A DNA stretch of 64,000 nucleotides from NCBI RefSeq assembly GCF_024700885.2, contig NZ_CP117016.1; one strand, given 5' to 3'. A program made the translations under genes and the position numbers. The stretch comes from Escherichia coli (lineage in GTDB: Bacteria > Pseudomonadota > Gammaproteobacteria > Enterobacterales > Enterobacteriaceae). A model generated the notes under the pieces. The model did not search any database. It saw nothing but the letters and a program-made list of their open reading frames with translations, and was not told the DNA's origin. Of the stretch, positions 22,972 to 40,787 are shown in pieces (the first letter of the stretch is position 1; every line of letters begins with the position of its first letter).

Positions 22972-23021
22972 ATGAGTGCAATAGAAAATTTCGATGCCCA
23001 TACGCCCATGATGCAGCAGTA
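22972..23021 (+). pseudogene. mutS: Orphaned original 5' end of mutS (first 17 codons, [17 protein letters not shown]) displaced by the island
   Basis: Sequence encodes the native MutS N-terminus as I recall it and then diverges abruptly into AT-rich island DNA; the frame ends after 17 further island codons. Confidence 0.8.
22999..23021. repeat. Left copy of the imperfect direct repeat flanking the island (attL candidate)
   Basis: CATACGCCCATGATGCAGCAGTA; 19 of 23 positions match the right copy at 40836-40858, with an identical ATGATGCAGCA core. Confidence 0.65.
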
Positions 23022-23079
23022 CCATTTTTCTATGGTTAACCTGTTGAAATTTAGCAATAAAGTGTTTGGTAAGTAGACT

Positions 23080-23100
23080 CTGGTTTACTGATGGTATACA
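23080..23100. repeat. Tandem CTGGTTTAC / TGGTATACA motifs at the island left end (candidate integrase arm-type sites)
   Basis: The same TGGTATAC/TATACCAG motif recurs three times next to the integrase gene at the right end. Confidence 0.4.
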
Positions 23101-23365
23101 TAACATATAGTTATGTTAGCCAAGAACTCGAACTTAATGTGCCTAACTACAGAATGAAAAGTAACGTTGCGATACCGAAAAAATTTGGTGGCGTAAGGAA
23201 GGAATTGAAGTTCATTCATCTCCGTGAATATCTAAATCAATTTAATAACCAATTAAATAATTAGCTGGCTACAAATAACATTGATCTAATTCAATAATTT
23301 AGGATTATGTATTGGAGCTATTGAAAAAGTTGTGTTATAAAGGAAAAAAATCAAGGGAGATTAAA

Positions 23366-23635
23366 ATGTCTATCGATATCAATAAGTTAAAATCAAAATT
23401 AATTGAAGATTATAAATTCGCTGACGAGATTAGCGATGATGAAATCAATATAGTTTTAAGTGAAATACACAAAAAGGGTGCCTCAACACCAAAAGAAGTA
23501 GACGAAATTGTCTATACGGTATTAGAGGGTAAAAGGCATTATGCTTTCGAAAGTCTGGATACATCCAATACTACATCCCTTGCATTACAGTTAATTCAGG
23601 CGGCAAAGGTATATGCTCAAACACAAGGAAGATGA
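23366..23635 (+). CDS. Hypothetical small acidic protein
   Basis: 89-aa ORF from an ATG preceded by GGGAG; AT-rich island DNA; no recognisable motif. Confidence 0.45.
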   Translation: MSIDINKLKSKLIEDYKFADEISDDEINIVLSEIHKKGASTPKEVDEIVYTVLEGKRHYAFESLDTSNTTSLALQLIQAAKVYAQTQGR

Positions 23636-24401
23636 AAGCATTCACATAGAGAGTAAAAAAAAACTTGATATGGAATTGCAGTTTTTAATAGATGAGATGC
23701 AAGCTGGGAAGGATAAAAACACTATTCTTCCACTGTTGAATAAACTGCAATTACAGTTTTCGATCTATGTTACTGATTTTGAAAATTTCATCGTTCGAGT
23801 TTCAGAAAATGGGTATTATCGTTCAAAAGGTGAAATAAAAGATGTTTTAATTAGCGTAGAAAATTTTTTAAATTCAAATGCAGTTGTTGCAGAAGCAATA
23901 AATACAGTTTCAAGCATATTCAATTTACCCCAATGTTATCAAGAAGGAAATTTCATAACAACTGCTCAAATAATATTAAGAACACATCAGAAAGAAAAAG
24001 CCGAGGAATTATCTCAAATTTATAAGGATAAAGGATTATCAACAAATGGCTTTGATAGTAAAGAAAAAATTTATTTGAACAGACACGGGTTTGATATGAC
24101 CAGATTTATTTCGTTTATATTAGGATTAATTTGTATACTTTATTTTTTATATGAATACAATATAGGCAATATAAACAATGGTATAAGTTGGTTTAATTAT
24201 AGATTGTTTGTTCCAACTGGATTAGGAGCAATAATATTTTCACTATTTCCGACAACCATGCAATTAAAATTTAGAGCAGGAGTGACAGCCACTGGAATTG
24301 TCGCATTTATTATATTTTTTTATACTGTCAATCCAGCAAAAGTTCCTGATTTTCAACTTCATAATATTGATAGCAATCAATCATCAGAAAAAAACAACTG
24401 A
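23613..24401 (+). CDS. Hypothetical protein, soluble N-terminal domain with C-terminal transmembrane helices
   Basis: 262-aa ORF overlapping the upstream ORF by 23 nt; three hydrophobic helices in the last 90 residues. Confidence 0.5.
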   Translation: MLKHKEDESIHIESKKKLDMELQFLIDEMQAGKDKNTILPLLNKLQLQFSIYVTDFENFIVRVSENGYYRSKGEIKDVLISVENFLNSNAVVAEAINTVSSIFNLPQCYQEGNFITTAQIILRTHQKEKAEELSQIYKDKGLSTNGFDSKEKIYLNRHGFDMTRFISFILGLICILYFLYEYNIGNINNGISWFNYRLFVPTGLGAIIFSLFPTTMQLKFRAGVTATGIVAFIIFFYTVNPAKVPDFQLHNIDSNQSSEKNN

Positions 24402-24448
24402 TATCCAAGCGGATATCAGTTTAGATCTTAAAAGGAAAAAAATCCAAA

Positions 24449-24943
24449 GTGAAATTTATAGCATATGCGTTCTTGTCATTTACTATCGCACCAATAATTG
24501 GCATAATTATTGGAATTCCATTTGATAAATACTTACTCAAAAACTATCCAGTAGTTCTTTTCACAGTAATAATTATTTTCTCGTCCTTAGGAATCTACTC
24601 TCTTTACTTGTATAAAAAATCATACAAATATGTTAATGATGCTGTTTTAGCTATCTTTACTGGTTGGGTTGCATTGACATACTTACTCACGGGAGAAAAA
24701 ACAAGTGAGATAATCCCCTCGGAGAAACTAATTGAAACACACCCATTAATGTATTATCTAATAATATTAAAATTAACTATTGTTGCAAATGGGCTTTTGG
24801 CTAAGATATTTATTACATTAAACGAATTATATCATGCTCGTAAAGCTGAAAACAAAAGTGGGAAATATACTGATGTTTTAAAAATGACTATTTCCAGCAT
24901 TAAATCTTTTTTTAATTCTCAGAAGGACGGAGTCAAAAAGTAG
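24449..24943 (+). CDS. Hypothetical polytopic membrane protein
   Basis: 164-aa ORF with GTG start and about four hydrophobic helices. Confidence 0.45.
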   Translation: MKFIAYAFLSFTIAPIIGIIIGIPFDKYLLKNYPVVLFTVIIIFSSLGIYSLYLYKKSYKYVNDAVLAIFTGWVALTYLLTGEKTSEIIPSEKLIETHPLMYYLIILKLTIVANGLLAKIFITLNELYHARKAENKSGKYTDVLKMTISSIKSFFNSQKDGVKK

Positions 24944-25153
24944 AACAACCCCCATAGGAATTATTAATGCATTCATTGAAATAATAGCAGCAAAAACCAC
25001 TGCTAAATAATCATTCTTTGTGTCATAAAACAAAAACACAACAATATTTAAAAATAACACAAAGAGATAAAAAAGCATATCTTTAATATTCATAACAGCC
25101 TCCTTTTTTCTAATTTGATAATTTACAAATATCTTAATATAACGAAAAGTCAA
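24878..25153 (-). CDS. Hypothetical small membrane protein (uncertain)
   Basis: 91-aa hydrophobic ORF; its 3' end overlaps the preceding plus-strand ORF convergently, so one of the two may be spurious. Confidence 0.3.
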   Translation of the reverse strand: MTFRYIKIFVNYQIRKKEAVMNIKDMLFYLFVLFLNIVVFLFYDTKNDYLAVVFAAIISMNALIIPMGVVLLFDSVLLRIKKRFNAGNSHF

Positions 25154-25244
25154 CTTACCCGATAAAAAATAGTTATTAGAACACCTTAAACTGATAATTA
25201 CATTAATAAATGCGAGTGATGAAATTTTTGAGTGAGATCATAAA

Positions 25245-25568
25245 TTGTTGAGGCGTAAAGTTGTTGATATACCTGCTGTTCTGGTAAGTACTGCCATAAT
25301 AAAGGGCTGGTCTCCATCTGGTTTACTGCTTATATTTGTAGCTATGCTACTTAAGTGCTCTGTCGTTATATTGGGTATACATAATGCCCAAAAATCATTA
25401 TCGGATATTATTGAATCATCTAATAAGACGATGATTTTATTCACGAAAGATAATGCCAATGATGATGACGAAGCATTAACCAACCGTATTAATCAGATCA
25501 CAACCGAAGCTTTAACCAAACTCAGTAATAAAAAAGTTGATGCTGAAAAAACCTTGAATAAGCTCTAA
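25245..25568 (+). CDS. Hypothetical membrane-anchored protein (uncertain start, TTG)
   Basis: 107-aa ORF with one hydrophobic segment; an alternative 81-aa ORF exists on the opposite strand. Confidence 0.3.
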   Translation: MLRRKVVDIPAVLVSTAIIKGWSPSGLLLIFVAMLLKCSVVILGIHNAQKSLSDIIESSNKTMILFTKDNANDDDEALTNRINQITTEALTKLSNKKVDAEKTLNKL

Positions 25569-25876
25569 TGGTTGATTTTCATTGGTGTATCAGTCTGGTC
25601 TATGTTTGTTTTATATCAATTCAAAGATAACATAATCCCAGTTATTGAATTCGCCTATGAGCATATAAAGAGTTTCGTTACTTATTTATTAAGCAAGGGC
25701 TAACTCATCGAAGCTCCGCTTCTTTGAGTTCCCTTGTTTTTCGCCCTTCGGTTGAAAAAGAAAGTCAAAGTCTAACCTAACTCATTGACATGAATTGCAT
25801 TTCCACTATAAATATATAATGTGTTGCAAAGGAATTGCTTACTTTAAAGCGAATAAAAATATAAAAAGGAGTTTAT

Positions 25877-26260
25877 ATGGGTAAAATAATAACATTGTCG
25901 TATACAAATAATTTTAAGCCTATTAGCGATAATAAATCTCAATCATTGCGAATACACTGTGTAAGTGTACGATTAAATAAAGAAGAGTTAGAGCTTCTCA
26001 ATGCAAGCCGTGGTGATAAACGCAAAGGTGAATGGCTTCGCATGGCATCACTTCAAAAGCTTCCTCCGACCATTCCTACAATCAATTTAGAAGTTTGGCA
26101 ATCATTGTCTGATATATCTCAAAAGCTAAACCGTCTAATAATCCACCTTGATACTAAAAGCAGTAATAGTGAACTGACGAAAACAGAGATCTTCGCTGTT
26201 AAAAAGCAGATTAAAGAGCTTCGCTCATGTCTTACAGGTTCTGATCCGTCCGTAAGGTAG
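25877..26260 (+). CDS. MobC-like mobilisation (relaxosome accessory) protein
   Basis: 127-aa ORF with the MobC-type core HCVSVRLNKEELELLNA...GEWLRM, immediately upstream of a relaxase gene. Confidence 0.65.
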   Translation: MGKIITLSYTNNFKPISDNKSQSLRIHCVSVRLNKEELELLNASRGDKRKGEWLRMASLQKLPPTIPTINLEVWQSLSDISQKLNRLIIHLDTKSSNSELTKTEIFAVKKQIKELRSCLTGSDPSVR

Positions 26261-26268
26261 TTATTCGC

Positions 26269-27450
26269 ATGAAAGGAATGCAGAAGATCAAAAGGGGTAA
26301 GAGCTTCTCAGGTGTGGTTCTCTATGTGTTAAAGCCAGGCTCACACCATAGAACCGTTCCAGAAGTAATTGGTGGCAACATGACAGGTGATTGCTCACAA
26401 GAGTTAATCGACGAATTTAACCTTACGAAAGAGCTTCGCTCAGATGTGGCAAAACCTGTTTGGCACAATTCACTTCGATTACCCCAGGGAGAATCTCTTA
26501 CCAACGAACAATGGAAACGAATTGCTGACGATTACATGAAGCGAATGGGGTTCGGTGATACACACCTCCGTTGCTATGTTCTTCATGATGATCAGGCTGG
26601 TCAGCACATACACATTATTGCAAGTCGCATAGATCTCAATGGCGGGAAGCTCTACTTGGGTAGGAACGAAAACCTCATCAGCACCCGCATAATCAGTGAA
26701 CTCGAATTCGCTCATGGTCTGACAGTGACCAAGACAGCCTCTTCAATTGCACCAAAGCAACCGAAGCGGAAGAGAATCTCTCGCAACGAACAGATGCTAT
26801 CAGAACGAACTGGTGTTCCCTGCCCCAAGAAGTCCCTTCAACAGATCATAGATAAAAGTTTGGCAGATACACCTGACCTTTTAACTTTTATCAAGAGGCT
26901 GGAAGAAGCAGAAGTAGGCTGGACGGCGAATGTCGCAAGCACAGGTAAAATGAACGGGTTCTCTTTCGAATACACAGGAATAGCTTTCAAAGCTTCCCAG
27001 TTAGCCAAGAGCTATTCATGGGCAAATCTTCAAAAGCAGCTTAACTACAACCCGGATCACTTAGAAGCTCTGCGAAAGGATATACAGACCAAGGAAGTTC
27101 CTGCTCCTGTTCCTGTTCCTGTTCCTGTTCCTGTTCCTGTTCCTGTTCCTGTTCCTGCAGAACCGATAGCAAGAACGGCCGCCCAGATCGAAAGCATAAG
27201 TGAAAAAATTGCCGAACTGGAACTACGACTCAAAGAAGACAGAAGAAACGAAATCGTAGAAAAGATTCTTCAAAAGAATGCAGCCAAACAGCAAAAGCAT
27301 CTCAGGCTCACCGGCTGGATTCCCTTTTTACAACGGCTCATAGAGCTTCTCAGAAAATATGGAAGGAGCATCCTCCACAAGGTTCCTACAAACTTCTTAG
27401 AAGTCTATTCAACCCATCATCTGAAACCTACAAGAAAAATTCGTTTATAG
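26269..27450 (+). CDS. Mobilisation relaxase (MobA/VirD2-like nuclease domain) with internal (PV)n linker
   Basis: 393-aa ORF with N-terminal Tyr region (GVVLYVLKPG) and HDDQAGQHIHII three-histidine motif typical of relaxases. Confidence 0.75.
   Translation: MKGMQKIKRGKSFSGVVLYVLKPGSHHRTVPEVIGGNMTGDCSQELIDEFNLTKELRSDVAKPVWHNSLRLPQGESLTNEQWKRIADDYMKRMGFGDTHLRCYVLHDDQAGQHIHIIASRIDLNGGKLYLGRNENLISTRIISELEFAHGLTVTKTASSIAPKQPKRKRISRNEQMLSERTGVPCPKKSLQQIIDKSLADTPDLLTFIKRLEEAEVGWTANVASTGKMNGFSFEYTGIAFKASQLAKSYSWANLQKQLNYNPDHLEALRKDIQTKEVPAPVPVPVPVPVPVPVPVPAEPIARTAAQIESISEKIAELELRLKEDRRNEIVEKILQKNAAKQQKHLRLTGWIPFLQRLIELLRKYGRSILHKVPTNFLEVYSTHHLKPTRKIRL
27100..27153 (+). repeat. In-frame hexanucleotide tandem repeat (CCTGTT)n, nine units with seven perfect, encoding a Pro-Val/Pro-Ala linker
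   Basis: CCTGCT-(CCTGTT)x7-CCTGCA read directly inside the relaxase ORF. Confidence 0.9.
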
Positions 27451-27702
27451 ACAGCTAGTTATAAACACCTTTCGTAACATAACTTAATTACCTAGTGATA
27501 AATTTGTGTTTAGTCAAGAAAATATTGATCGTTATTACAGATCGATATCAATATTATGATAGCCTAAACCTATCGTAACTTAGACATCGATCGGTACAAG
27601 TGATTTTACTAAAGATAATTATTCATCGAGAATCCCTGAAAAGAGCCTGATGATTTTTAAGCAATAGCAGTATCAGGAACCGATTGTAAAAATGGAGTTA
27701 AT

Positions 27703-27981
27703 ATGAATAACGAAACCATTAAGTGTCCGTTCTGCTTCAAAGAGAGCCAGTTTGGTGTCCGTGTTTGTACCGGCTGTCATTCAACCATCAAATATGGCGA
27801 AGTTTCACCTTGGTTATCTTTACTAATAGGATTTATTTTATTAGCCATTGCTTACATCATACTTTATATAAGTCAAAGTTTTTTAGTAGCTCTCGTTATT
27901 CTTTTAACATTAATGATTTCTACAAGATTGTATATTCGTAAAAAATTTGCACACAGAGCAGTTTTCACTCACCAACATTAA
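27703..27981 (+). CDS. Hypothetical zinc-ribbon membrane protein
   Basis: 92-aa ORF with CPFC...CTGC at the N-terminus followed by two hydrophobic helices. Confidence 0.45.
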   Translation: MNNETIKCPFCFKESQFGVRVCTGCHSTIKYGEVSPWLSLLIGFILLAIAYIILYISQSFLVALVILLTLMISTRLYIRKKFAHRAVFTHQH

Positions 27982-27999
27982 GAACAAAAGGGATTTAAC

Positions 28000-28314
28000 A
28001 TGAAAGCATATGCTATGCTAACAATCATTCTTTCTACTTTTCTATTAACTGCATGTAATAGTGAACCAAGTCAAGATGATATCTACAATGCATTCAAAAG
28101 TGTTGTAGATAAAACCAATGCCAGCATGAAAGCTTTTGATTCAAGAGTGTCAGAAAAAGACCTTTTAAAAATCGATTATGTAAAAAAAGTAAGCTGTTCG
28201 GAAGAAGCAAACAATGTTTACAACTGCATTGTCGATGCTTCTATTAGCAACAATAAACAGACGAAACCAATTAAATTAGTTAAAGCTGATGGTGTCTGGA
28301 AAGAAGTTCAGTAG
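28000..28314 (+). CDS. Hypothetical lipoprotein
   Basis: 104-aa ORF with signal peptide and lipobox (LLTAC) at the N-terminus. Confidence 0.5.
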   Translation: MKAYAMLTIILSTFLLTACNSEPSQDDIYNAFKSVVDKTNASMKAFDSRVSEKDLLKIDYVKKVSCSEEANNVYNCIVDASISNNKQTKPIKLVKADGVWKEVQ

Positions 28315-28366
28315 TAGCCTATATCAAGAAGTCTCTTTTAGCCCCTGCACAGGGGCTTTTTATTGC

Positions 28367-28801
28367 CTATAACCTGACGGCTCTTACGCGAACTTCATGG
28401 GTTAACTCTTTCTCGATTACTTTCATTTCATATTGTGCTCTGACAGTAGCATAGATTTCTTCTGCCATTTCTTGATTGCTATCGATATAGTTAACGAGAG
28501 AGTTTAGCTCCCTGATAACAGCTTCCTTATTGTTTAATCGTTGTAGTAGATTGCTTGTTAGGCTTTTGTATACAGAGCTAAACATTGCCATGACATTGTC
28601 TATGTTACGATTTGATTTGGAATAAATTTTTTTAGGATAGAAATATTTTAAATGGTATCCCACAAAAATTAAGTAAAGCTGATATGAAAAACTTTTATCA
28701 TGTGGCTGATATCGTTTTGATATGTATTTATCTACAATGATAACAAGCTGTTCTTCCAGTGTCATCACTGAATTATAATTGGTTTTGTTCATAAGTTGCA
28801 T
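28367..28801 (-). CDS. Hypothetical protein
   Basis: 144-aa ORF in AT-rich island DNA; no recognisable motif. Confidence 0.4.
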   Translation of the reverse strand: MQLMNKTNYNSVMTLEEQLVIIVDKYISKRYQPHDKSFSYQLYLIFVGYHLKYFYPKKIYSKSNRNIDNVMAMFSSVYKSLTSNLLQRLNNKEAVIRELNSLVNYIDSNQEMAEEIYATVRAQYEMKVIEKELTHEVRVRAVRL

Positions 28802-28894
28802 CCTTGCAAAATTTGATTTTGTCTTCCTGACAATACATATATAATTACCACATATTTAAAAAACATCAATAGACAAAACCTATTGATGTCAAAA

Positions 28895-29308
28895 TTATTT
28901 TTTGTTTTTGGGAAAAATTTGATCTTCTCTAATACATTTACCATATGCAACCATTTGAAGATCTCTAACCATAAGTAGAAGCCTGTTATTTTCACTAACT
29001 AACCTCGAATTTTCTGTTTCTAATTTACTGATTTTATTCGAAGCATAGGCAAGACTTTGAGGACTTTTAATATGCTTAACAGTTTCACCTTTAGTTCTCT
29101 TTTTCTGCTGATATGCATAAGCTATTACTGTATGTCTTGAAAGAGCCTGTCTCGTTGGTTTTTTACCGAAATGATCCTCTACGGAATCACAAAGACTGAC
29201 CCAAGTTAAATCGCCTTCCCAGCCATTTATTTTATCGAGAACGAATTCAATATCTTCCTTGTTAAACTTTTTACTCATTATGTTCTCCTCTAAGATAATA
29301 ACTAACAA
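28895..29308 (-). CDS. Small coiled-coil protein co-operonic with the recombinase trio (real start possibly MSKKFNKED at 29278)
   Basis: 137-aa ORF overlapping the stop of the upstream recombinase; C-terminal heptad-like KISKLETENSRLVSENNRLLLMVRDLQ. Confidence 0.5.
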   Translation of the reverse strand: MLVIILEENIMSKKFNKEDIEFVLDKINGWEGDLTWVSLCDSVEDHFGKKPTRQALSRHTVIAYAYQQKKRTKGETVKHIKSPQSLAYASNKISKLETENSRLVSENNRLLLMVRDLQMVAYGKCIREDQIFPKNKK

Positions 29309-30917
29309 TATGATTTATAATTTTACTAACTTCTTGGATTTCCTTTTCAACATAATTCGCTTTCTGTGAATTATATTGGCTTCTGTATAAATTATTCTTT
29401 TCTTCAAGCGTTTGTAAATGGTCTTTAATTTTGCAAATAATATCATCCTTACTCCCTCCACCTAAATCAGAAATCATTTCATCAGCAAATAATACTCTTC
29501 GTTCGTTTTGTCGCAACTCCTCCCAAGTTCGGTTATCATACACATTATTTTGTTCAACATTTTTCCTCCCTGACCAAAAAGCTATTTCTATATCAGAGAG
29601 CATAGCTCTTTGAGCAAGAGTGTTTAAAAGATGTCTTGGCTGATGACTACTAAAAATCTCTTTCATACCATTGGGTTGTAATGTTTTATGTCGTTGAAAA
29701 AAATTTAAGGTAGTTTCTTTTTCTGACCTTTTTTTAAAATCAGCAATAAACATCTTTTTATTTGCGGGTAAGACACAGAATAAATCAATTCCTTTCTTTA
29801 AATGTAATTGATCTTTATTTAGGATTAACAATCTATTACTAAGGTTTATAGATTTTGAAAATTCATCCCAAGATTTTGTTTTATCGCTATAATTAAAAAC
29901 TTCATTCCAAAATTCTTTTGCACTAAGAATCCCACTCTCTACCCTCATTAATATATTTTTAGTTTTAACATTGAAGCAGTCCATACAGTTTAGATTTAAA
30001 AGCTTATACAACTTTGTATGAAAATATCGTCCATTCTCATCAGTCTCTAAACTCTTATAAAACTCCAATTCTCCTTTTTCTCGTAGGGTAGCTATGCACC
30101 TTGCCGTTTGTGATAATACCCTTAATCTTTTAATGGCTAATTTTGCTATTGAATGCATATTCCTTGGAATCCACTTTATACTTTCACCATAGCCTTTTGC
30201 ACTATGATAACGAATGCCATAGGAGCCTTTCCCCTCTATGTCGTTCCCTTCAACTTCACAATCCACCTCAAGACTCAGGACTTCTGATATTCGTGTTGGA
30301 GCACAAAGAAGCAGTGCGATGATAGATGTTGTAAATATATCTCTTTGGCTTTTATCATTAGAACTAAAAACCCTACCAACAAGATCTATGACTTCCTCTT
30401 CTGGTAACTTATTTTTAATTTCTTTTTGCCCTATAAGATCTCTTACAGCTTTATTTCTAATTATTCTAAGCCTGGAGTTAAACTTACTTAATTTTGGATT
30501 TATTATGTTATTTATAGCTAACACTTCTAAAATATTCTTTAATGCCTTTTCAATAGCCCCCGCACGACTATTAGAATATTTCTTTTCTACTTGGAATAAA
30601 ATGTTGTTGATAACCTCAGAATTAATATTAACAATATGTGGTTCTACATTCAAAGTGAAGAATGAACTTTCCATAATTTTTATGACCGCCAAATAAAGTA
30701 ATGATTTACTGAGATTAGGGAAACACTCTCTATATATAATAACCTTTGATAATTGTTGAAAATGCGCTCCCATGTCTTTATCTTTTTTTATATGATTGTT
30801 ATTTTTAAATGAAACCCCTCTACCCCATGACAAATCATCCCAATTTATAATATTTTCTTTTTTTGCCTGTATCCTTACTTCATTAGCTAAAACATCATAA
30901 TTATTATAATGACTCAT
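29271..30917 (-). CDS. Tyrosine recombinase family protein (third of three tandem paralogues)
   Basis: 548-aa ORF; candidate catalytic residues in order: R in CAPTRISEVLSL, HQPRHLL (HxxR), W in FWSGRK, Y in NNVYDNR. Confidence 0.6.
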   Translation of the reverse strand: MSHYNNYDVLANEVRIQAKKENIINWDDLSWGRGVSFKNNNHIKKDKDMGAHFQQLSKVIIYRECFPNLSKSLLYLAVIKIMESSFFTLNVEPHIVNINSEVINNILFQVEKKYSNSRAGAIEKALKNILEVLAINNIINPKLSKFNSRLRIIRNKAVRDLIGQKEIKNKLPEEEVIDLVGRVFSSNDKSQRDIFTTSIIALLLCAPTRISEVLSLEVDCEVEGNDIEGKGSYGIRYHSAKGYGESIKWIPRNMHSIAKLAIKRLRVLSQTARCIATLREKGELEFYKSLETDENGRYFHTKLYKLLNLNCMDCFNVKTKNILMRVESGILSAKEFWNEVFNYSDKTKSWDEFSKSINLSNRLLILNKDQLHLKKGIDLFCVLPANKKMFIADFKKRSEKETTLNFFQRHKTLQPNGMKEIFSSHQPRHLLNTLAQRAMLSDIEIAFWSGRKNVEQNNVYDNRTWEELRQNERRVLFADEMISDLGGGSKDDIICKIKDHLQTLEEKNNLYRSQYNSQKANYVEKEIQEVSKIINHIVSYYLRGEHNE

Positions 30918-32274
30918 TATTCATGCCCTCCTTGTTGAGCAATTCGATTATTTTATTTATTTTACATTCTAACATTGTGAATAAGTCCGTTAGGATTTCA
31001 AAGTCTGCTTGCTTCGTATAATCTGCTATTAATACTCCAGTAAGCTTTTTTATGATTATCAAATCGTCAACCAATCTAAGGGTAATGTCGTCACTGTTTT
31101 TTAAAAATGAGGAAATATAAGGGCTTACTAACTCATTTATTGCCTGATCTATTCTGAATGAAAACTCTTCATTGTTTTTTGCATACGACAATACTGATTT
31201 CAAATTGCTATGATCTAAAGCTTTTGCTATCGTACCTAATCCATAACCTTTAAGTGCAAGCCTTGTGGCTAATGTAACCCTAAGTTGCCGAGAGTTAATC
31301 TTTTTATTTTTATCTTTACTTACCCTTTGGCAAATGGCCTGAACCCTACCGGTTATCCTCTTAGAACTCATATGCAAATTGAAGAAGTTATTTTCATATA
31401 ATTTATCAAGTTTGTAAGTCGAGTTAAAAAAACAAGGATCAATAAAGAGGGGTAAATTGTTTAATTCATCTTCACTTAATATATCGCCTACCTCACCCTG
31501 CACAAAAACCTTAACTACTGATTTAAGCTCTGATAGTGAATTGAACAAATTATCCCCTATACGCAATTCGGAAAAATCAGTTCTGAAACTATCTCCTTGT
31601 TTTAATCTGGGTATGTTTAAAAAATTACCATTTTCTTTGATATAAAGATCCTTCCTTTTTAATTGAGCGATCTGCATTGGTCTTCGCCCCGAATATATCA
31701 TCAGCATGACTAAAAGGTAGTCATTCATAGTCATATTTCCATCATTGTATTCCTTTGTCATGCCCCCAATTAGGTTCTTCAGTTCGTATTCAGATAATGG
31801 TCTTAAAGACTCTTTTCGCTCAATATATGCAGTTGTCTTGTTGGGTTTAGTTACTTTCCATTTTAAAATCAAATCCAGCATTTCTTGATCTATGAATTCA
31901 TTATTTAACTCATAATGTTTTATTATAAAATACTTTAAACTTTCAACATGTGTATAGCTTATTTTATAATATGCATTGTAAAATCTATTTAGTAATCCAT
32001 AGTCAAATTTGTCCAACTTCCCTTGATTAAAAACAACGAGTTTTTTTATAGAAAAGAAAAACTTTCTCGCATAAGCTGAACTAAAATTCACAGCAGTATA
32101 GGCAAGGGTCTCTTTTATAGATGCTAATAAGATAGCATTAATGTTTCTTTCAAAATATGAGAAATTTAATTTAACATCTTTGCTGAGAAACCAAACACTA
32201 TCATGTAAACTAAAATTATTTCTGCTGTCTTTTGCCTTTAATACCAAGTAATTTTCTAACATTAATGCTTTCAT
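30904..32274 (-). CDS. Tyrosine recombinase-like protein with degenerate catalytic motifs (second of three)
   Basis: 456-aa ORF; SGRRPMQIAQL (box I Arg), SRQLRVTLATR, LDHSNLKSVLSYAKN; overlaps both neighbours. Confidence 0.5.
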   Translation of the reverse strand: MKALMLENYLVLKAKDSRNNFSLHDSVWFLSKDVKLNFSYFERNINAILLASIKETLAYTAVNFSSAYARKFFFSIKKLVVFNQGKLDKFDYGLLNRFYNAYYKISYTHVESLKYFIIKHYELNNEFIDQEMLDLILKWKVTKPNKTTAYIERKESLRPLSEYELKNLIGGMTKEYNDGNMTMNDYLLVMLMIYSGRRPMQIAQLKRKDLYIKENGNFLNIPRLKQGDSFRTDFSELRIGDNLFNSLSELKSVVKVFVQGEVGDILSEDELNNLPLFIDPCFFNSTYKLDKLYENNFFNLHMSSKRITGRVQAICQRVSKDKNKKINSRQLRVTLATRLALKGYGLGTIAKALDHSNLKSVLSYAKNNEEFSFRIDQAINELVSPYISSFLKNSDDITLRLVDDLIIIKKLTGVLIADYTKQADFEILTDLFTMLECKINKIIELLNKEGMNNESL

Positions 32275-33508
32275 CTATTTCTCCTTCAATTTTATTTATG
32301 ATTTCTTGATTCACTAAATCTGCCTCTTCAAAAGCTTTTAAAGTTTCTTCACTAATATAACGATTGTTATAAATCAAAGCCGTTTTGGAGTTCATTTTCC
32401 ACCCCATTCTTACGCATCTGATTCTATCTAATTGGGTCAATCTATATTGATCAGTGACTCCTATGTATTTTAAACTGTAAATATAGTTCCATGTGTGCCG
32501 TAGACAATGCCCTGTGAAATTTTGAAAAGATACTCCATTGAATTCAATTCTACTTATTTGCTTAATTACTTTATGATATGCACTTATTGACAGAGGAAAT
32601 CCTTCCGTAGGACCAGATTTTTGAGTAATAAATAAGTAATTATGATTTAAGCTTTTCGAATAGAAAGACCTATCATTGTCTATATATGAAGAGATTTGCA
32701 TAGACAATTTTTTGCTAATATTTAATTCTCGTTCAAATGTTTTAACAAGTGGTTGAAAAACTCTTGGGTCTGCTGGATCATTTATTCTTTTACAAACTTT
32801 CAGATATCTTTTTTCCTTGTTAAAATCAGTAATTTTCAAGTTCAATAGCTCACCCCCTCGCATTCCAGTTTCCTGAAGAATGAGGATTATGAGTTGATTT
32901 CTTTTACGGCAACTGATATCAACAAATGGATTGTATTGGCTTTCAGGTTCTATACATTGCAATAGAATGTCTAAGCTTTCTTTTTCTAATGATTTAAAAT
33001 CATTATTCAAATAGAATTGAGAGTTTAATTTTGGTTTATGTTTACGAAAAAGCAAACTAACACTTTTTGATATAATGTTTGTCTCATATATTGTAGTGCT
33101 AAAATATGATTCATAAATCCAAGAAATGTAGGAACTAATTACTGTCAATCTATAATGAAGATTTTCTTGATTGATCTTTTTATACTCTTTTATATCTATA
33201 ACTTTTTGTTTTTTATTTTTAACTCTAAGTTGTTCTGACAATGAATAGATTTCAGTAAAGCTAAGGAAGGTCTTAGATCTAATTCTTTCGATAAGATTTA
33301 TATTTGATTCTATTAGATAATTTTCAAAAGCAATCAAAGTGTAAGCATTTCTCAATACTGTATTAAATGACTTATTCTTTTGCTTATATAGCAAACTAAG
33401 ATATATATTTTGATAATACAATGGCAAACCGTTTTTTGAATCCAAAATCATACAAAATCTGCTTCCATCACTCGCCATTAACTTCTTTACTGAATATCTC
33501 CTATTCAT
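32216..33508 (-). CDS. Tyrosine recombinase family protein (first of three; start set at MNRRYSVKKL after a GGGGTGA RBS, ORF extends to 33547)
   Basis: GMRGGELLNL (box I Arg), HCLRHTW (HxxR), GWKMNS, ALIYNNRY (Tyr) in canonical order. Confidence 0.65.
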   Translation of the reverse strand: MNRRYSVKKLMASDGSRFCMILDSKNGLPLYYQNIYLSLLYKQKNKSFNTVLRNAYTLIAFENYLIESNINLIERIRSKTFLSFTEIYSLSEQLRVKNKKQKVIDIKEYKKINQENLHYRLTVISSYISWIYESYFSTTIYETNIISKSVSLLFRKHKPKLNSQFYLNNDFKSLEKESLDILLQCIEPESQYNPFVDISCRKRNQLIILILQETGMRGGELLNLKITDFNKEKRYLKVCKRINDPADPRVFQPLVKTFERELNISKKLSMQISSYIDNDRSFYSKSLNHNYLFITQKSGPTEGFPLSISAYHKVIKQISRIEFNGVSFQNFTGHCLRHTWNYIYSLKYIGVTDQYRLTQLDRIRCVRMGWKMNSKTALIYNNRYISEETLKAFEEADLVNQEIINKIEGEIDESINVRKLLGIKGKRQQK

Positions 33509-33626
33509 TATCACCCCATAATTTATTTTTTTATTTATAGGTAACATAATTTTTTAGCAAGTTACAAATTTATTTGCTATTATTTTCAATGACCTTATTA
33601 CTCGCGACTCTAATAAAGAATCGGCC

Positions 33627-33652
33627 ATATATTCACCTTAAGGTGAATATAT
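33627..33652. promoter_or_regulatory. Perfect palindrome ATATATTCACC-TTAA-GGTGAATATAT between the recombinase operon and the tRNA genes
   Basis: 11-bp arms with a 4-bp spacer read directly; function (operator or recombination site) not determined. Confidence 0.5.
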
Positions 33653-33680
33653 ATTCCCTCTTGACGCTCCAAAAAACAAT

Positions 33681-33757
33681 GCGGTAGTAGTTCAGTTGGT
33701 CAGAATATTCCCCTGTCACGGGAATGGTCGTGGGTTCGAGTCCCATCTATCGCGCCA
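33681..33757 (+). tRNA. tRNA-Asp (anticodon GUC), foreign island-borne copy
   Basis: Manual cloverleaf: acceptor GCGGTAG/CTATCGC, D stem GTTC/GAAT, anticodon stem TTCCC/GGGAA with loop CUGUCAC, T loop TTCGAGT, 3' GCCA; differs from my recollection of the host tRNA-Asp. Confidence 0.8.
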
Positions 33758-33761
33758 GAAA

Positions 33762-33836
33762 GGGCAATTAACTCATTGGTAGAGTGTATCTCTTACAAAG
33801 ATATGGCGGTTGGTTCGATTCCAACATTGCCCACCA
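33762..33836 (+). tRNA. tRNA-Val (anticodon UAC), foreign island-borne copy
   Basis: Manual cloverleaf: acceptor GGGCAAT/ATTGCCC, D stem ACTC/GAGT, anticodon stem TATCT/AGATA with loop CUUACAA, T stem GTTGG/CCAAC, 3' ACCA. Confidence 0.8.
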
Positions 33837-33847
33837 AAACATAAAAT

Positions 33848-33917
33848 GCGTCAGTATTTCAATGGTAGAATAAAACATTGCCAATGTTTAGGTGAGGGTT
33901 CGATCCCCCTATATTTA
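33848..33917 (+). pseudogene. Degenerate tRNA-like sequence with a Gly (GCC) anticodon arm
   Basis: Intact anticodon arm AAACA-TTGCCAA-TGTTT and a T-loop-like GGGTTCGATCCCC, but the acceptor strands GCGTCAG and ATATTTA cannot pair. Confidence 0.4.
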
Positions 33918-34104
33918 CTTTAGTTAGTAACTCATTGATATAAAATAAATAATAGAAAAGTGTAATTTGTTTTGTAAAGCACAAATAAGAAATTAGAAAA
34001 TATTTAAATGTACAGTGTACGAAAAATTAACCAACTATGTTAATGGCAACTATATGATGATAAAATTACTCATCTAACGATCTATATTATATGAGTAATG
34101 TTTC

Positions 34105-34680
34105 ATGGTACGAAAAATCTCTACATTTTTAAAGATAATAGGAGTTATAGGTTCTTTATGCGGGATTATTGCGACAGTATTCACAATCTATGCGTACTAC
34201 AACCCGACCTCCCCTTCTACTCAGAGATATGACAGTATTGTAGGAAGCTGGCTATCTGATTACTCTTACACCGTAAAAGGGAATACCGTTAGGGTTAATG
34301 GAAAAACGACCTTCTTCTCTAATGGAAAATACAACTTTCATGGCAGTATCTCTATTGACTCTAATGCTCCAGGTGACCATATATTAATAGATTATCTTTC
34401 TGATGGTGCTGGTGATTGGGAACTATATGATAATGAGTTAATTACATCATTAAATAGCCTAAAAACAAAACCTATGAAGCTGGCTTTAAATAACGAAGAT
34501 CTTGATCCACTGAAAATAGAGGTGATAAACAATAAAAAGTTACCAACTATTGAGGAGAATATGGCTGATGGGAAAAACCAATCCTATAAAATAATAAAAT
34601 CTTCAAAAAGCCAGTTAACATTGGAGGTTATTAACGAAATCGGAAGCAATTTCAACTTTACTATGCAAAAAACAAAATAG
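34105..34680 (+). CDS. Hypothetical membrane-anchored or secreted protein
   Basis: 191-aa ORF with an N-terminal hydrophobic segment followed by a Ser/Thr/Asn-rich domain. Confidence 0.45.
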   Translation: MVRKISTFLKIIGVIGSLCGIIATVFTIYAYYNPTSPSTQRYDSIVGSWLSDYSYTVKGNTVRVNGKTTFFSNGKYNFHGSISIDSNAPGDHILIDYLSDGAGDWELYDNELITSLNSLKTKPMKLALNNEDLDPLKIEVINNKKLPTIEENMADGKNQSYKIIKSSKSQLTLEVINEIGSNFNFTMQKTK

Positions 34681-34711
34681 AAATGATGGCGATCTGAAAT
34701 CGCCATCATTT
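34681..34711. terminator. Perfect 13-bp stem hairpin, bidirectional terminator between the convergent 191-aa ORF and the helicase gene
   Basis: AAATGATGGCGAT-CTGAA-ATCGCCATCATTT with A/T runs on both sides, filling the gap between two stop codons. Confidence 0.75.
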
Positions 34712-34712
34712 T

Positions 34713-36560: not shown

Positions 36561-38548
36561 TAAAGTAATCCTCTTACTGTTTCGATAATTTCATTAAGAA
36601 CTTCAGGACTATCATCTCTTAACTTATCGTCTTCCATTTTTGATAGAACATAATTGTGCGATAATGGTTTACCTCTTCCTAAAAATAGGTAACGATACCA
36701 AAAATATTTTTCATAATCATCGAACTCACTAATATCAATATCTTTCTCTTCTTTTTTCAAAACTGCAGCAATTGCCGATTTAACTTTATTATCATATTCA
36801 TGATCGTCATCTTTTGGCAATCTTGGCCCACCATTTTTGGGAACAAATGTCTTATAATCCTCAAAGAATTTATTAAGCATTAGCCAATCTAAATCGTAGG
36901 GGTAAGAAAAATAAACATTATAATCTTTTAGACAATTAATCCATGCCGATTCATTATCTTGATCCTCATCCCATGTATGCATTTTTTCAAGCTCTTCATC
37001 ACTTAAAGTTCCTGAAGTAATACTTAACAATTCATTTTTATCTGCACCTATAGATATTAATTGTTTGACTGCATATTTAATTCTTCCCCAACCACCACCT
37101 CCTCCTCTCTTGAAATCATAGTCGAGAAGAGTCACATGTGGAATTGAAAGCTCATTGAGTAACTTCCAAAAATGATTAACATATCGCCCTCCTAATGGAG
37201 CAAATGTTATCAATGAAGTGTCAAGCTCTATACCATTTACTTGAGCTATTTTAGGTATTACTATTTCTTCGCTATCACCTTCACCAAGTATTACAACTTT
37301 TGCAAAATAAATTTCTGGATATGCCTTCACTGCTTCTTTTACATAAGTGAAAGTATCAACATTGTCTCCATCGTCTTCATCTTCGCTTGGTAATAATATT
37401 GGTTTGACAACAGTATTTTTATTATCATGTAGACGAAAATACCTTATATTTTCTGGTTCTACTCTATTGAGTAATGAAGGTGCGTGTGTTGTTAAAACAA
37501 CCTGTGCTCGATCATTCTCAGATATATCTTCACATAGTTTAACTATTCTTCCTAAATATTGGGGTGAAAGATGATTTTCTGGTTCTTCGATTAATATTAT
37601 CGTTAAATTTGGAGGATCTAATGCTTCTACTGATATTGATAATTCATTTTCTCCTGAATTAATGATCTCATCTTCAATATCAAATGCAGATTTGACTAAC
37701 GAAAGATAAAACAATGACTTCATACCATCACTCAATCTTTCAGTTGGTAATGGCTGAGTCACCGGAGTAGGCATAAATACAGTATCTATATGCTTTAATA
37801 CATCTTCTATTCCATTCATTACTGGCTGAATTTTAAGCTGTTCAAAATACCCTCCGCTAAAAAGAGTTTTCCAATTTCTGCCCAATGAAGATGTTATTGT
37901 CTGAACCCCAATTTCTTCTTGGAACTGGTTTCCGATTGATTCTGCAACCTCATCAACCGTTGAACTCATCTGTTCAGACCATTCAACTGCATTTATCAAA
38001 CGGTGCATGATGGTTCCGGCTGTTTGCTTCAGTTGTTGAGCAGGATCGCGATAAGCAGGGACATAATGAACATGGATTTTTGATCTTTCATATGCTGTAA
38101 TATTTTTTTCATATTCTCCTATTTCCCATACTAAATCACTATCTATATCCCCTTCTGCAAGATTAGTTTTTGTCCATTTAGCTTTTAATTTTGCTATACA
38201 GTATGGGATCTGGTCTGCTTCATTTGAGACCAAATGCTTAAAGAAATCAGCGACTGAATCGTCCTCACCATCTTGCAGATCTGCAAATTCAAATTTTACA
38301 CGAACTGATAATTCTCTTTCATCTTGAGTATCGATTTCATCTCCAGGAGGAACATAAAAATCATCAACTTGAACAATTCTATCGGAGCTTTTGACACCAA
38401 ACATCCTTGTCAATGCGAGGAGAACAGCCGTCTTACCTGTTCCATTCCCTCCAATTAAGCTGGTGAATGAATTTATATTTATAGTTTGCCCTACATTATC
38501 AAAGCTCTTAAAACCTTTGATCTCCATTTGTGTAATTTTCATTATCAC
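36560..38548 (-). CDS. gajA: OLD-family ATPase-TOPRIM nuclease, Gabija GajA-like
   Basis: 662-aa ORF with ABC-type Walker A (LIGGNGTGKTAVLL), Walker B and H-loop region (IILIEEPENHLSP) and a C-terminal TOPRIM-like VVILGEGDSEE. Confidence 0.65.
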   Translation of the reverse strand: MIMKITQMEIKGFKSFDNVGQTININSFTSLIGGNGTGKTAVLLALTRMFGVKSSDRIVQVDDFYVPPGDEIDTQDERELSVRVKFEFADLQDGEDDSVADFFKHLVSNEADQIPYCIAKLKAKWTKTNLAEGDIDSDLVWEIGEYEKNITAYERSKIHVHYVPAYRDPAQQLKQTAGTIMHRLINAVEWSEQMSSTVDEVAESIGNQFQEEIGVQTITSSLGRNWKTLFSGGYFEQLKIQPVMNGIEDVLKHIDTVFMPTPVTQPLPTERLSDGMKSLFYLSLVKSAFDIEDEIINSGENELSISVEALDPPNLTIILIEEPENHLSPQYLGRIVKLCEDISENDRAQVVLTTHAPSLLNRVEPENIRYFRLHDNKNTVVKPILLPSEDEDDGDNVDTFTYVKEAVKAYPEIYFAKVVILGEGDSEEIVIPKIAQVNGIELDTSLITFAPLGGRYVNHFWKLLNELSIPHVTLLDYDFKRGGGGGWGRIKYAVKQLISIGADKNELLSITSGTLSDEELEKMHTWDEDQDNESAWINCLKDYNVYFSYPYDLDWLMLNKFFEDYKTFVPKNGGPRLPKDDDHEYDNKVKSAIAAVLKKEEKDIDISEFDDYEKYFWYRYLFLGRGKPLSHNYVLSKMEDDKLRDDSPEVLNEIIETVRGLL

Positions 38549-39195
38549 CTCAATTGCTGTTTTAAAAAATTATAATCACTAATTATTTCTGCGTTTGTAA
38601 TGATTTCTTGTGAGCACAGCTTAAAACATTCTAAAAATATATTTTTATTATCGTTATGTTCCCAATGTTTTTTCAAAGCTTCTTCAATTGAAATCCAAAT
38701 AACTTGAAAATCGTTATTAGATATTTGGCTTGTTAAAACTGTTTCTTCCACACAAAGTATATGCCCTAAGATGACATCATCGTATATGTCAGTATCTGAA
38801 TCTCTAACTCCTAACCTTTTTATTTTCCTTTTTTGGATGATTTTATTTTTAACAATAAAAGGATGTTCTTCTATAAAATCGGTCAATGATGTAAAAGCCA
38901 AGCCACGAACCTGAGCACCATGCATTGAACTATTTACTTTATGGATATCTCTCCAAACTCGCAGATCACCTAATACATAGAGAACCCGCTGATTTCTCGC
39001 TTTCGTATCTTCTGCTTGGTATTGGATATAAGGTGGCCCTCCCCCATTTTGTCTATATCGGGCAAGGGTTTTGATGCTTATGCCAAGAAAGACAGAAGCA
39101 AGCTCACTATTTACAGTGGCAGAATCAGGCATTTGACCAAATAGTTTCCATACCTCTGAATACTCCCGCAAAACTTCCACCACACTCATCTTCAC
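38545..39195 (-). CDS. Uncharacterised protein with an N-terminal HTH-like motif, translationally coupled between the integrase and the ATPase (possible true start at ATG 39189)
   Basis: 216-aa ORF; ELASVFLGISIKTLARYRQNGGGPP resembles excisionase/AlpA-type HTH; its start overlaps the integrase stop and its stop overlaps the ATPase start (ATGA). Confidence 0.5.
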   Translation of the reverse strand: MKMSVVEVLREYSEVWKLFGQMPDSATVNSELASVFLGISIKTLARYRQNGGGPPYIQYQAEDTKARNQRVLYVLGDLRVWRDIHKVNSSMHGAQVRGLAFTSLTDFIEEHPFIVKNKIIQKRKIKRLGVRDSDTDIYDDVILGHILCVEETVLTSQISNNDFQVIWISIEEALKKHWEHNDNKNIFLECFKLCSQEIITNAEIISDYNFLKQQLR

Positions 39196-40655
39196 TCCCT
39201 CGTTTCAGGTAATGGAGGATACTTAGCCGAAGCAAGTAACACATTGTATAATTTAGGAGCAGTCATAAGCATATGCAACTCAATCCTTTGTAATGCTTCA
39301 AAAATCCGTTCTTGATCAGGTTCTGCATACCTTTCTGTTGGATCTGTTGTATTTCTGTGATTGAGCAGTCTCTTAACGACGGCATATGAAACAAGTTCTT
39401 CAGCAACCCTACCAAATGTCCTTCGTAGATCATGCATACCAAGCTTCAGGATTCCCGCCTCTTGGCAGATATATTCCCTTAGACTTTTACTATCGGAATA
39501 GTGACCAACTTTACTTCGAGAAGAACGGGCCGGGAAAACCCACTTCTGTTTGTCCTTCTGGGTTACCGTATCGTTTACTATGTCTCTTCTATCTTCCAAA
39601 ATTCTTTTGACAGCATCACAAATCGGAAGCTCGTGATCGTTTCGATTCTTAGTGTCGTAAAAACGGATAGTTCTGTTACTCAGGTCAACATAGCTTGTCG
39701 TTTTAGCTTCTTCCTTTGTAAGAGACTCTCGCCAACACAGAGAAGCTGTTTCTTCCTTACGAGCACCTAAGAGAACGGTAAGTAGCAGATAATCGCACCC
39801 AAGCCGGTTGAAGCTTCTCTTGTTGAACAATGCAGTCAAGAACCGACCAAGTGTATCCTTTGGTGATAAGGGGTTTCTGACACCTTTTGCCCGATAACTA
39901 TCCTCAAGCTCAGAACGTGTCCTAAACTTTTTCTGTACCTTTAAGATACTGAAAGGGTTGTAAGATAGAGAAGGTTGTCGTTGCTGGGTCTGAGCATTCC
40001 CAGCTTCAATCTCTATTGCGTGTTTTACAGCAACATTCGCCCACCTAAAGGTCTGTTCCGCTGCTGTTCTGGCTCTTGAAGCAATCTCATCAAACTTCCT
40101 AAGAATTTCATTACCAGTAAGATCTTTAACTCGCAAACCAGCCCACTCAGAAAGCCTGTTTTCTGCTTTATCTAATACAGCCAAGGTGTTGGGTTTAGCT
40201 GGTTTCGCTCTACCCAGCAGATGCTGGCGGTATTGTGCAAACACTTCACTGATAGTGAGTTCAGAAGCATCGGACTCCCGTTTTATTTTGTTAGGGTTCC
40301 TTTTGGTCAACTTCATGGTTTGAACTAAATTGCGAGCAACCTCGCGGGCTTGATCGATGTTAGCGAAATCAGAGACATTGCCAATTGTAGACCTGATAAC
40401 CTCAGATGGGGATTTTCCCCCTGTCTTAGGGCGATTGCCAGGAGAAGAGACTCGTCGCTGAACGATATAGGTCTTTTTCGTTGCACTGATTTTGACACCA
40501 AAACCAACGGGTGAATCCCGGTGATTATCAGTGATAAGATACGGTTTTCGCTCTGGATTGGGTAAGTAGACTACTCTGCCTTGCGGATCAAGGCTCGGTT
40601 TCACGTCGATAGATAACTTATTGATTATAATCGACTGATTGAGTGTCATTTTCAT
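39192..40655 (-). CDS. Tyrosine integrase, P4-like family with N-terminal arm-binding domain (ORF extends to 40763; start set at MKMTLNQ)
   Basis: Box I LLGARKEETASL, HDLRRTFG (HxLR) and C-terminal NHRNTTDPTERY; lies at the island border next to the target gene. Confidence 0.8.
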   Translation of the reverse strand: MKMTLNQSIIINKLSIDVKPSLDPQGRVVYLPNPERKPYLITDNHRDSPVGFGVKISATKKTYIVQRRVSSPGNRPKTGGKSPSEVIRSTIGNVSDFANIDQAREVARNLVQTMKLTKRNPNKIKRESDASELTISEVFAQYRQHLLGRAKPAKPNTLAVLDKAENRLSEWAGLRVKDLTGNEILRKFDEIASRARTAAEQTFRWANVAVKHAIEIEAGNAQTQQRQPSLSYNPFSILKVQKKFRTRSELEDSYRAKGVRNPLSPKDTLGRFLTALFNKRSFNRLGCDYLLLTVLLGARKEETASLCWRESLTKEEAKTTSYVDLSNRTIRFYDTKNRNDHELPICDAVKRILEDRRDIVNDTVTQKDKQKWVFPARSSRSKVGHYSDSKSLREYICQEAGILKLGMHDLRRTFGRVAEELVSYAVVKRLLNHRNTTDPTERYAEPDQERIFEALQRIELHMLMTAPKLYNVLLASAKYPPLPETRE

Positions 40656-40660
40656 CGATG

Positions 40661-40716
40661 TATACCAGTGGTTCAAGTGTGTATACCAGATAGTAGCTAG
40701 AATACTTCTGGTATAC
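40661..40716. promoter_or_regulatory. Three copies of TATACCAG, including a 10-bp inverted repeat GTATACCAGA...TCTGGTATAC, between the integrase start and mutS
   Basis: Read directly; candidate integrase operator or arm sites, overlapping a possible -10 (TAGAAT) for the rewired mutS. Confidence 0.5.
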
Positions 40717-40787
40717 AAATTTATGGGTTTATGTGAGTTTAAAGGGGTATCACTTGGGGCCACATAAGTACTCAGAAGACTTTAAAA

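Follow-up and report, generated by a model that had tools for sequence, protein, structure and literature searches.

The stretch analysed here, referred to as the window, comprises 64,000 nt of the Escherichia coli chromosome (RefSeq assembly GCF_024700885.2, contig NZ_CP117016.1), and it carries a genomic island between ygbA and mutS. The segment 25690-27450 of this island is very probably the mobilisation (DNA-processing) module of an integrative mobilisable element (IME), with a candidate origin of transfer (oriT), an accessory-protein gene of mobC type and a relaxase gene. On sequence comparison the best oriT candidate is the region 25692-25736, whose core and covarying stem travel with the relaxase family over plasmids and islands. 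The island as a whole, as far as can be read from its genes, is most likely an ordinary helper-dependent mobilisable island, a kind of system that is well known. We also lean, with some reserve, towards the view that a large enterobacterial lineage of GInt elements has an IncQ-3-like mobC-relaxase-oriT module in its conserved backbone, directly after ginD, and that these islands are helper-dependent conjugative hitchers with a swappable defence cassette in the leading region.

To the initial annotation the island looked like an integrative mobilisable element lacking conjugative transfer genes. This description agrees with the presence of integrases, a relaxase and an oriT candidate, although the structure is more complex, as the insertion also contains a GInt operon, Gabija genes and another integrase. 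No type IV secretion system (T4SS) or type IV coupling protein family was matched by the open reading frames (ORFs) of the island in general family scans, a dedicated T4SS scan not being run, and the RefSeq annotation of an identical island lists no conjugation gene. Relaxase-encoding IMEs (Guedon et al. 2017) likewise have an integrase, a relaxase, an oriT and no mating pore, whereas they carry a single Int/Xis pair in place of the GInt operon and second integrase of the window. The chromosomes of E. coli CFSAN061761 and MLI114 matched the segment 25570-27460 at 100% identity, and a related module (73-93% identity) was found in 135 of 5426 complete E. coli genomes, every copy being chromosomal.

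Relaxase and accessory protein

The features of the module are as follows.

25692..25704, minus strand: oriT core (candidate), a conserved 13-mer; top strand AGCAAGGGCTAAC; bottom strand 5'-GTTAGCCCTTGCT-3', with the proposed nick region 3' of the hairpin
25694..25736: candidate oriT hairpin; inner arms 25702-25714 and 25718-25730, loop TCC; outer arms CAAGGG and CCCTTG
25737..25759: second hairpin, by folding; T-run and A-run around GCCCTTCGG
25760..25813, plus strand: AAAGTC repeats, second CTAACTCAT copy and TTGACA (25785-25790)-N16-TATAAA (25807-25812); putative accessory-protein binding sites and putative mob promoter
25877..26260, plus strand: relaxosome accessory protein, MobC/NikA type, 127 amino acids (aa), predicted ribbon-helix-helix N-terminus
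26269..27450, plus strand: relaxase, probably MOBP type, 393 aa; N-terminal HUH nuclease domain, TraI-middle-like region, (VP)n linker and C-terminal helix
27097..27157, plus strand: (GTTCCT)10 tandem repeat coding for the Val-Pro linker of the relaxase

The adjacent mobC-like and relaxase ORFs of the initial annotation exist at 25877-26260 and 26269-27450. The second of them, labelled 'relaxase/mobilization nuclease domain-containing protein' in RefSeq, encodes an intact relaxase, most likely of MOBP type. The Pfam Relaxase model (PF03432, MobA/VirD2-like nuclease domain) matched residues 19-151 at E=1e-26, with the model fully covered (1-132). An alignment with nine homologues, which reached down to 41% identity and included the MobA proteins of plasmid pGNB2 and of a plasmid from Pseudomonas, showed that Y19, H66, S68, H106, H113 and H115 were invariant and D108 nearly so. 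The sequence HDDQAGQHIHII, residues 106-117, is the motif III His triad (HxDx4HxH). The AlphaFold model (pLDDT 84-95 across residues 11-150) had a sole significant PDB neighbour, 2NS6, the minimal relaxase domain of R1162 MobA (probability 1.00, TM score 0.51); searches of PDB chains with the sequences of the relaxase and of the accessory protein returned nothing relevant. The relaxase with a three-histidine motif that had been proposed is thus borne out by the Pfam domain, the invariant Tyr and His triad and the best fold match, and the loss of these catalytic residues on alignment, which had been raised as a concern, was not seen (Y19, H106, H113 and H115 are all invariant).

The top NCBIfam models for the relaxase were Bacteroid_MobB (9e-20) and TraI_MobP_relax (1.8e-18), both far under their curated cut-offs (66.8 bits against 250 bits for the latter), and the protein therefore lies outside every named equivalog. 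Its nearest typed plasmid relative is MobA of pGNB2, with 42.5% identity over residues 6-256; MOB-suite assigned the pGNB2 relaxase to MOBP and called the plasmid mobilizable. Since the copy number of the GTTCCT repeat differs among relaxase homologues, the length of the Val-Pro linker is hypervariable.

The ORF upstream of the relaxase gene is labelled 'hypothetical protein' in RefSeq. A full HMMER scan of 1.84 billion representatives found 329 relatives of its product at E<=1e-3. When 48 homologues (phmmer, E<1e-7) were scanned singly, 26 matched NikA-like and 14 matched MobC (E<=1e-3), and the consensus of the 48 aligned relatives was R-x-HCVSVRLN-x2-EL-x2-LD...GEWLR, followed by LAR-x3-NLNQ. 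By tblastn, the protein was 46% identical to the mobC region of pGNB2 over the aligned segment, and the top PDB neighbour of its model, a weak one, was PcfF, the accessory factor of pCF10 (E=0.17, probability 0.8). Because its homologues match those families, the protein is, by this transitive evidence, a diverged ribbon-helix-helix relaxosome accessory protein of MobC/NikA type.

Candidate origin of transfer

An oriT had been proposed upstream of mobC from an imperfect hairpin at 25702-25730 and a repeated motif, CTAACTCAT. This location is supported by a conserved core, a covarying stem and a match to the published putative core of IncQ-3 plasmids. The hairpin is real: the inverted repeat (13-nt arms, 85% complementary, 3-nt loop) is the inner part of a longer, 43-nt hairpin at 25694-25736. 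The 80-nt stretch with both hairpins folded with z = -3.8 on either strand, and none of 200 shuffles was as good. No Rfam family was found at the hairpin, and within the window only tRNAs matched Rfam. The second hairpin was invariant in the E. coli loci L002-L004 and similar in most enterobacterial loci. The non-coding stretch 25731-25800 was nearly invariant in L002-L004, as was the repeat and promoter-like block at 25760-25813, though their mob genes are only 66-82% identical. The TTGACA of the putative promoter was also retained in most enterobacterial loci; the TTGACA-N16-TATAAA site was not called in a strict promoter scan.

As for the repeated motif, it is present but is not the conserved determinant, which is instead the 13-mer at 25692-25704 together with the hairpin. 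Copies of CTAACTCAT were found at 25700, 25777 and 31128 (0.31 copies expected in the window; none of 100 shuffles gave three). Distant relatives keep only the first copy, owing to its overlap with the oriT core and the 5' arm. The second copy directly adjoins the -35-like TTGACA; since close relatives alone retain it, the repeats were rejected as iterons. A 43-aa ORF overlapping the core (25572-25703) was also rejected as a gene, being unannotated in RefSeq and lying in a region upstream of the core that is unconserved.

The comparison set consisted of 80 loci with relaxase relatives out of 100,044 species genomes, plus E. coli and plasmid loci (numbered L001 onwards). Of 86 loci, 69 had the 13-mer AGCAAGG[GT][CG]TAA[CT], exact or with one mismatch, at most 5 kb upstream of the relaxase and on the same strand; in 60 loci the distance was no more than 800 nt. 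Elsewhere in the 1.3 Mb there were 15 copies, about 16 being expected by chance for the whole set from shuffled sequence. The relaxases of loci with the 13-mer ranged from 82% down to 37% identity, and the hosts included Enterobacterales, Pseudomonas, Acidithiobacillus, Gallionella, Halothiobacillus and Desulfacinum. The hairpin starts in the TAAC of the 13-mer and has at least 26 distinct 5'-arm sequences, with stems such as AACTCAGC/GCTGAGTT, AACTGAGC/GCTCAGTT, AATTCGGC/GCCGAATT and GACTAAGAGAAGC/GCTTCTCTTAGTC. A perfect stem of at least 5 bp anchored at the same base was present in 62% of 61 unique relatives, compared with 4% of shuffles. Among 17 enterobacterial copies of equal length, 7 of 19 pairs, in 19 cells, had changed on both sides, and the covariation score was above all of 500 shuffles and every slid-partner control. 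The 13-mer with its hairpin offers a compact signature for finding related origins in genomes.

Comparison with IncQ-3 plasmids and RP4

The 12-mer TTACACCTTGCT has been reported as the conserved putative oriT in all 29 IncQ-3 plasmids, and conjugal transfer was seen for two of these plasmids (Piotrowska et al., PMC7557826). The core of pGNB2, AGCAAGGTGTAA, is on the reverse complement exactly this 12-mer, and the exact pGNB2-type core was also found in L006, L067-L069, L071, L072 and L074. The reverse complement of the window core, TTAGCCCTTGCT, agrees with TTACACCTTGCT at 10 of 12 bases and is located on the bottom strand at 25703-25692, 174 nt upstream of the accessory gene. The IncQ-3 plasmids (pGNB2, pBRST7.6 and relatives) share with the window the oriT core, the hairpin and the order of mobC and relaxase on a single strand, and the core has the same place and orientation relative to mobC. 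However, the IncQ-3 relaxase is fused to a RepB primase, whereas in that of the window a (VP)n linker and a long helix make up the C-terminal end. The window module also has no repA/repC or oriV and is chromosomal on an integrating element; its hairpin is longer, with a T-run and then another hairpin behind it.

The relaxase has the three motifs of TraI of RP4 and R751 (IncP, MOBP11), namely Tyr, H-x-S and HxDx4HxH, with the same spacing as in RP4. As in the TraI-TraJ system of these plasmids, a small gene for a DNA-binding accessory protein immediately precedes the relaxase gene, and its transcription runs away from oriT. In known MOBP and MOBQ origins, including those of RP4/R751, the nicked strand carries a variable inverted repeat and, 3' of this repeat, a conserved nick region (PMC3772185), and the candidate of the window is alike in this respect. 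Unlike RP4/R751, the window has no Tra2/Mpf or TraG genes, and the similarity to TraI stays under the NCBIfam cut-off given above. Distant relatives conserve only the 5' side of the hairpin (top strand), so that the bottom strand reads as the hairpin and then GTTAGCCCTTGCT. Because only this 5' flank is conserved, and given the MOBP/MOBQ geometry, the bottom strand is the more likely one to be nicked, a few bases 3' of the hairpin. A possible position is CCTTG|C, which is like but not equal to ATCCTG|C (the bar marks the nick).

GInt backbone and cargo slot

The mobilisation module is preceded by variable cargo and followed, after three small genes, by the recombination operon.

23312..25703, plus strand: variable cargo in the predicted leading region next to oriT; 4-5 ORFs, small or coding for membrane proteins
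28895..33547, minus strand: ginD-ginC-ginB-ginA-type operon, the GInt recombination module

The ORFs of the gin operon (32216-33547, 30904-32274, 29271-30917 and 28895-29308) are all on the minus strand and overlap. The GinA- and GinB-type proteins matched tyrosine recombinase models; the GinC- and GinD-type proteins had no match in the family-model scan. Proteins identical to the L003 ginC- and ginD-type proteins are listed in a published ginC-ginD catalogue, as are the ginD-type proteins of L004 and L002; the window's ginD-type protein is 79-89% identical to its counterparts in L003 and L004. The island resembles published GInts in its four-gene operon (two tyrosine recombinases, a large recombinase-like protein without family match and a small protein) and in its variable cargo. 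It differs in that a conserved mob/oriT module follows ginD and in the presence of a second, mutS-specific integrase. The arrangement of a mob module and then a gin operon was seen in about 29 fetched loci, at several chromosomal sites.

It has been stated that GInts are 'putatively non-mobilizable' (PMC10214605), and Pseudomonas GInts were not transferable in the laboratory (Bardaji et al.). In a survey of E. coli defence islands, the text counts GInts among islands with 'unclear mechanisms of mobilization', the label 'IME__GInt' is given to some islands in the supplementary tables only, and mutS/ygbA is hotspot 8, with 2% occupancy (PMC10121019). The co-occurrence of GInt and mobilisation is therefore already catalogued in these tables, though not described. 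If the lineage-wide reading is true, it would supply the long-missing transfer mechanism of GInts and correct the view that GInt-type elements have no mobilisation functions. The added value is modest: a proposed transfer mechanism for the enterobacterial defence islands of GInt type, and an oriT signature for them.

Two observations concern the operon itself. A perfect palindrome, ATATATTCACCTTAAGGTGAATATAT, is located at 33626-33651, about 80 nt upstream of ginA, and is kept in L003 and L004, whose similarity to the window stops just past it; the palindrome may mark the end of the GInt or serve in regulation. An IS1A copy breaks the ginC-type gene in the otherwise identical island of CFSAN061761 (L001, 24087-24784), and the ginC-type ORF of the window, matching MLI114, is intact (548 aa).

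The cargo ORFs of the window encode proteins of 107, 262, 164 and 107 aa, partly membrane proteins, and PADLOC and NCBIfam gave no match for the ORFs in 23312-25568. In this slot L003 carries retron Ec48, L004 an HNH nuclease and L002 ThiF/MPN genes. Since sister islands hold known defence systems there, the cargo of the window is a candidate uncharacterised defence or anti-defence cassette. A bottom-strand nick would make the DNA left of oriT lead and the mob genes enter last, and the predicted leading region would then coincide exactly with the variable slot. It has been reported in a preprint that the defence genes of conjugative and mobilisable islands cluster by oriT, on the side away from the relaxase (10.64898/2026.01.13.699239). 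The window is like the 'iMOB' islands of that study in having its variable cargo by oriT, opposite the relaxase.

Proposed transfer and alternative explanations

Transfer of the island may be pictured as follows. The island would excise as a circle by means of the gin operon, the mutS-side integrase or both. The accessory protein would bind the repeats between the hairpins and the promoter, and the relaxase would nick the bottom strand within 5'-GTTAGCCCTTG|CTT-3', immediately 3' of the hairpin, in an RP4-like geometry, whereupon Tyr19 would become linked to the 5' end. The coupling protein and mating pore of a co-resident conjugative plasmid would export the strand, so that the cargo (23312-25703) would enter the recipient before all else and the mob genes at the end. 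Such a route would explain how the recurrent E. coli defence islands at the ygbA/mutS and ssrA hotspots (retron Ec48, Gabija, HNH) can move between cells. The predicted helper dependence is testable, as IncQ-3-like MOBP relaxosomes are typically served by IncP-type pores.

Several points weigh against this picture. We infer excision, nicking and transfer of this element only from comparison with other systems, and the position and strand of the nick are taken only from geometry. The enterobacterial core sits in a quasi-palindrome, so those copies by themselves leave the strand unsettled. The MOBP nick sequence (C/T)ATCCTG(C/T) is absent from both strands of 25570-25876; the conserved core has ...CCCTTGCT instead. 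For the IncQ-3 12-mer, too, the role of oriT is only putative and was assigned by homology, and of five IncQ-3 plasmids tested with an RK2 helper, three failed to transfer (PMC7557826). The core was 1-4 kb upstream of the mob genes in ten loci. In about ten loci (L005, L019-L025), whose relaxases are 51-57% identical, the core was absent and another hairpin was present; one example upstream of the accessory gene in this sub-lineage is AGGTATAC...GTATAACT, and the different hairpin may represent a second oriT specificity within the family. Finally, the accessory protein itself had no significant Pfam, NCBIfam or PDB sequence match (the best was NikA-like, PF21983, at E=0.64, and there was none for MobC, PF05713). 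The term 'MobC-like' in the initial annotation is therefore sound as a description, by way of the homologues (26 of 48 NikA-like, 14 of 48 MobC), but failed the direct test with hidden Markov models.

It was also considered that the hairpin at 25694-25736 and the T-run after it serve solely as an intrinsic terminator insulating the mob operon from the cargo genes, the real oriT being elsewhere or absent. The stem is indeed followed by TTGTTTTT, the cargo ORFs at 23312-25568 are transcribed toward the hairpin, the consensus terminator scan called one site, the inner stem at 25710-25722, and a T-run follows the hairpin in most enterobacterial loci. Taken together, the two hairpins look like an intrinsic terminator for the cargo genes, and the hairpin with its T-run probably also terminates transcripts coming from the cargo. 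However, a terminator needs no fixed 13-mer, whereas the 13-mer is kept in Pseudomonas, Acidithiobacillus, Gallionella, Desulfacinum and IncQ-3 plasmids or islands, where the hairpin has no T-run; it is also always on the relaxase strand and equals the published IncQ-3 oriT core. A terminator without any oriT function is thus very unlikely, and a dual role of the hairpin, as oriT and terminator, is likely. A slightly less remote alternative, still improbable in our judgement, is that the module is a non-functional relic, with intact genes but no excision or no compatible helper, and that it spreads only vertically or by transduction or transformation. The failed transfer of Pseudomonas GInts (Bardaji et al.) and of the three IncQ-3 plasmids, the IS1 copy in the ginC-type gene of CFSAN061761 and the occurrence of a related module in only 135 of the 5426 E. 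coli genomes would all fit a relic. On the other hand, neither the relaxase ORF nor the accessory ORF is truncated, the catalytic residues are invariant, the non-coding oriT/promoter stretch is better conserved than the mob genes, and the module is found at several chromosomal sites (ygbA/mutS, ssrA and others), in many genera and with varied cargo. These facts suggest ongoing horizontal movement under selection.

The least probable of the alternatives places the transfer origin downstream of the relaxase, in a conserved non-coding block at 27505-27600 with GATC-rich inverted repeats, and we give it hardly any weight. Parts of this block are invariant in L002-L004 though the neighbouring genes are 66-82% identical, and it holds a 27-nt imperfect inverted repeat, three GATC sites and two ATCGAT sites. 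However, it folds no better than shuffles (z about -1.3 to -1.6), travels with a downstream 92-aa ORF in a subset of loci only, and has no counterpart in the plasmid relatives, which have the upstream core. A more likely role of the block is in controlling the downstream genes, as their promoter or operator, and it may be a Dam-sensitive one for the 92-aa zinc-finger-like membrane ORF. The core and hairpin upstream of the accessory gene remain the preferred oriT candidate.

Island boundaries and remaining genes

The remaining features of the island and its ends are listed below.

22998..23021, plus strand: left direct repeat, 24 bp, within the original 5' end of mutS
33681-33910: tRNA cluster just upstream of ginA, with tRNA-Asp(GTC), tRNA-Val(TAC) and, as a third member, a tRNA-like sequence that is truncated (34 bits in Rfam)
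34713-38548: complete Gabija system, GajB at 34713-36560 (E=4e-198) and GajA at 36560-38548 (E=2e-240), between the gin operon and the mutS-side integrase
38545..40763, minus strand: second integration module, adjoining mutS, with an ORF of 216 aa and a tyrosine recombinase of 523 aa
40835..40858, plus strand: right direct repeat, 20 of 24 positions identical, within the reconstituted mutS

Compared with K-12, the island is a 17.8-kb insertion at 23022-40834, and the imperfect 24-bp direct repeat that flanks it falls within the initial 50 nt of mutS. From left to right, the order is cargo, oriT candidate, mobC-type gene, relaxase gene, three small genes, ginD-C-B-A-type operon, tRNAs, Gabija, the 216-aa ORF, the 523-aa tyrosine recombinase and mutS. 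The same pair of 216-aa ORF and recombinase adjoins mutS in L018 and L021, where the mob module is present and the gin operon is absent. Between ginA and the right repeat there are 7 kb (tRNAs, Gabija and second integrase), and no internal third copy of the 24-bp attachment repeat was found in the insertion at up to 5 mismatches. The island is either one composite element or two elements in tandem or nested, and the 24-bp repeats enclose the entire insertion. The tRNA cluster is an insertion, since L003 and L004 lack it at the same spot. The second variable slot, occupied by Gabija in the window, holds Qat genes in L003.

At the left junction (22972-23021), the native mutS start codon and about 16 codons have been left behind. 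At the right junction (40788-40858), the N-terminal peptide and the upstream region of the new mutS 5' end are supplied by the island, giving an ORF of 860 aa at 40788-43370. Since the island replaces both the N-terminal peptide and the upstream region, MutS expression in carriers may be altered.

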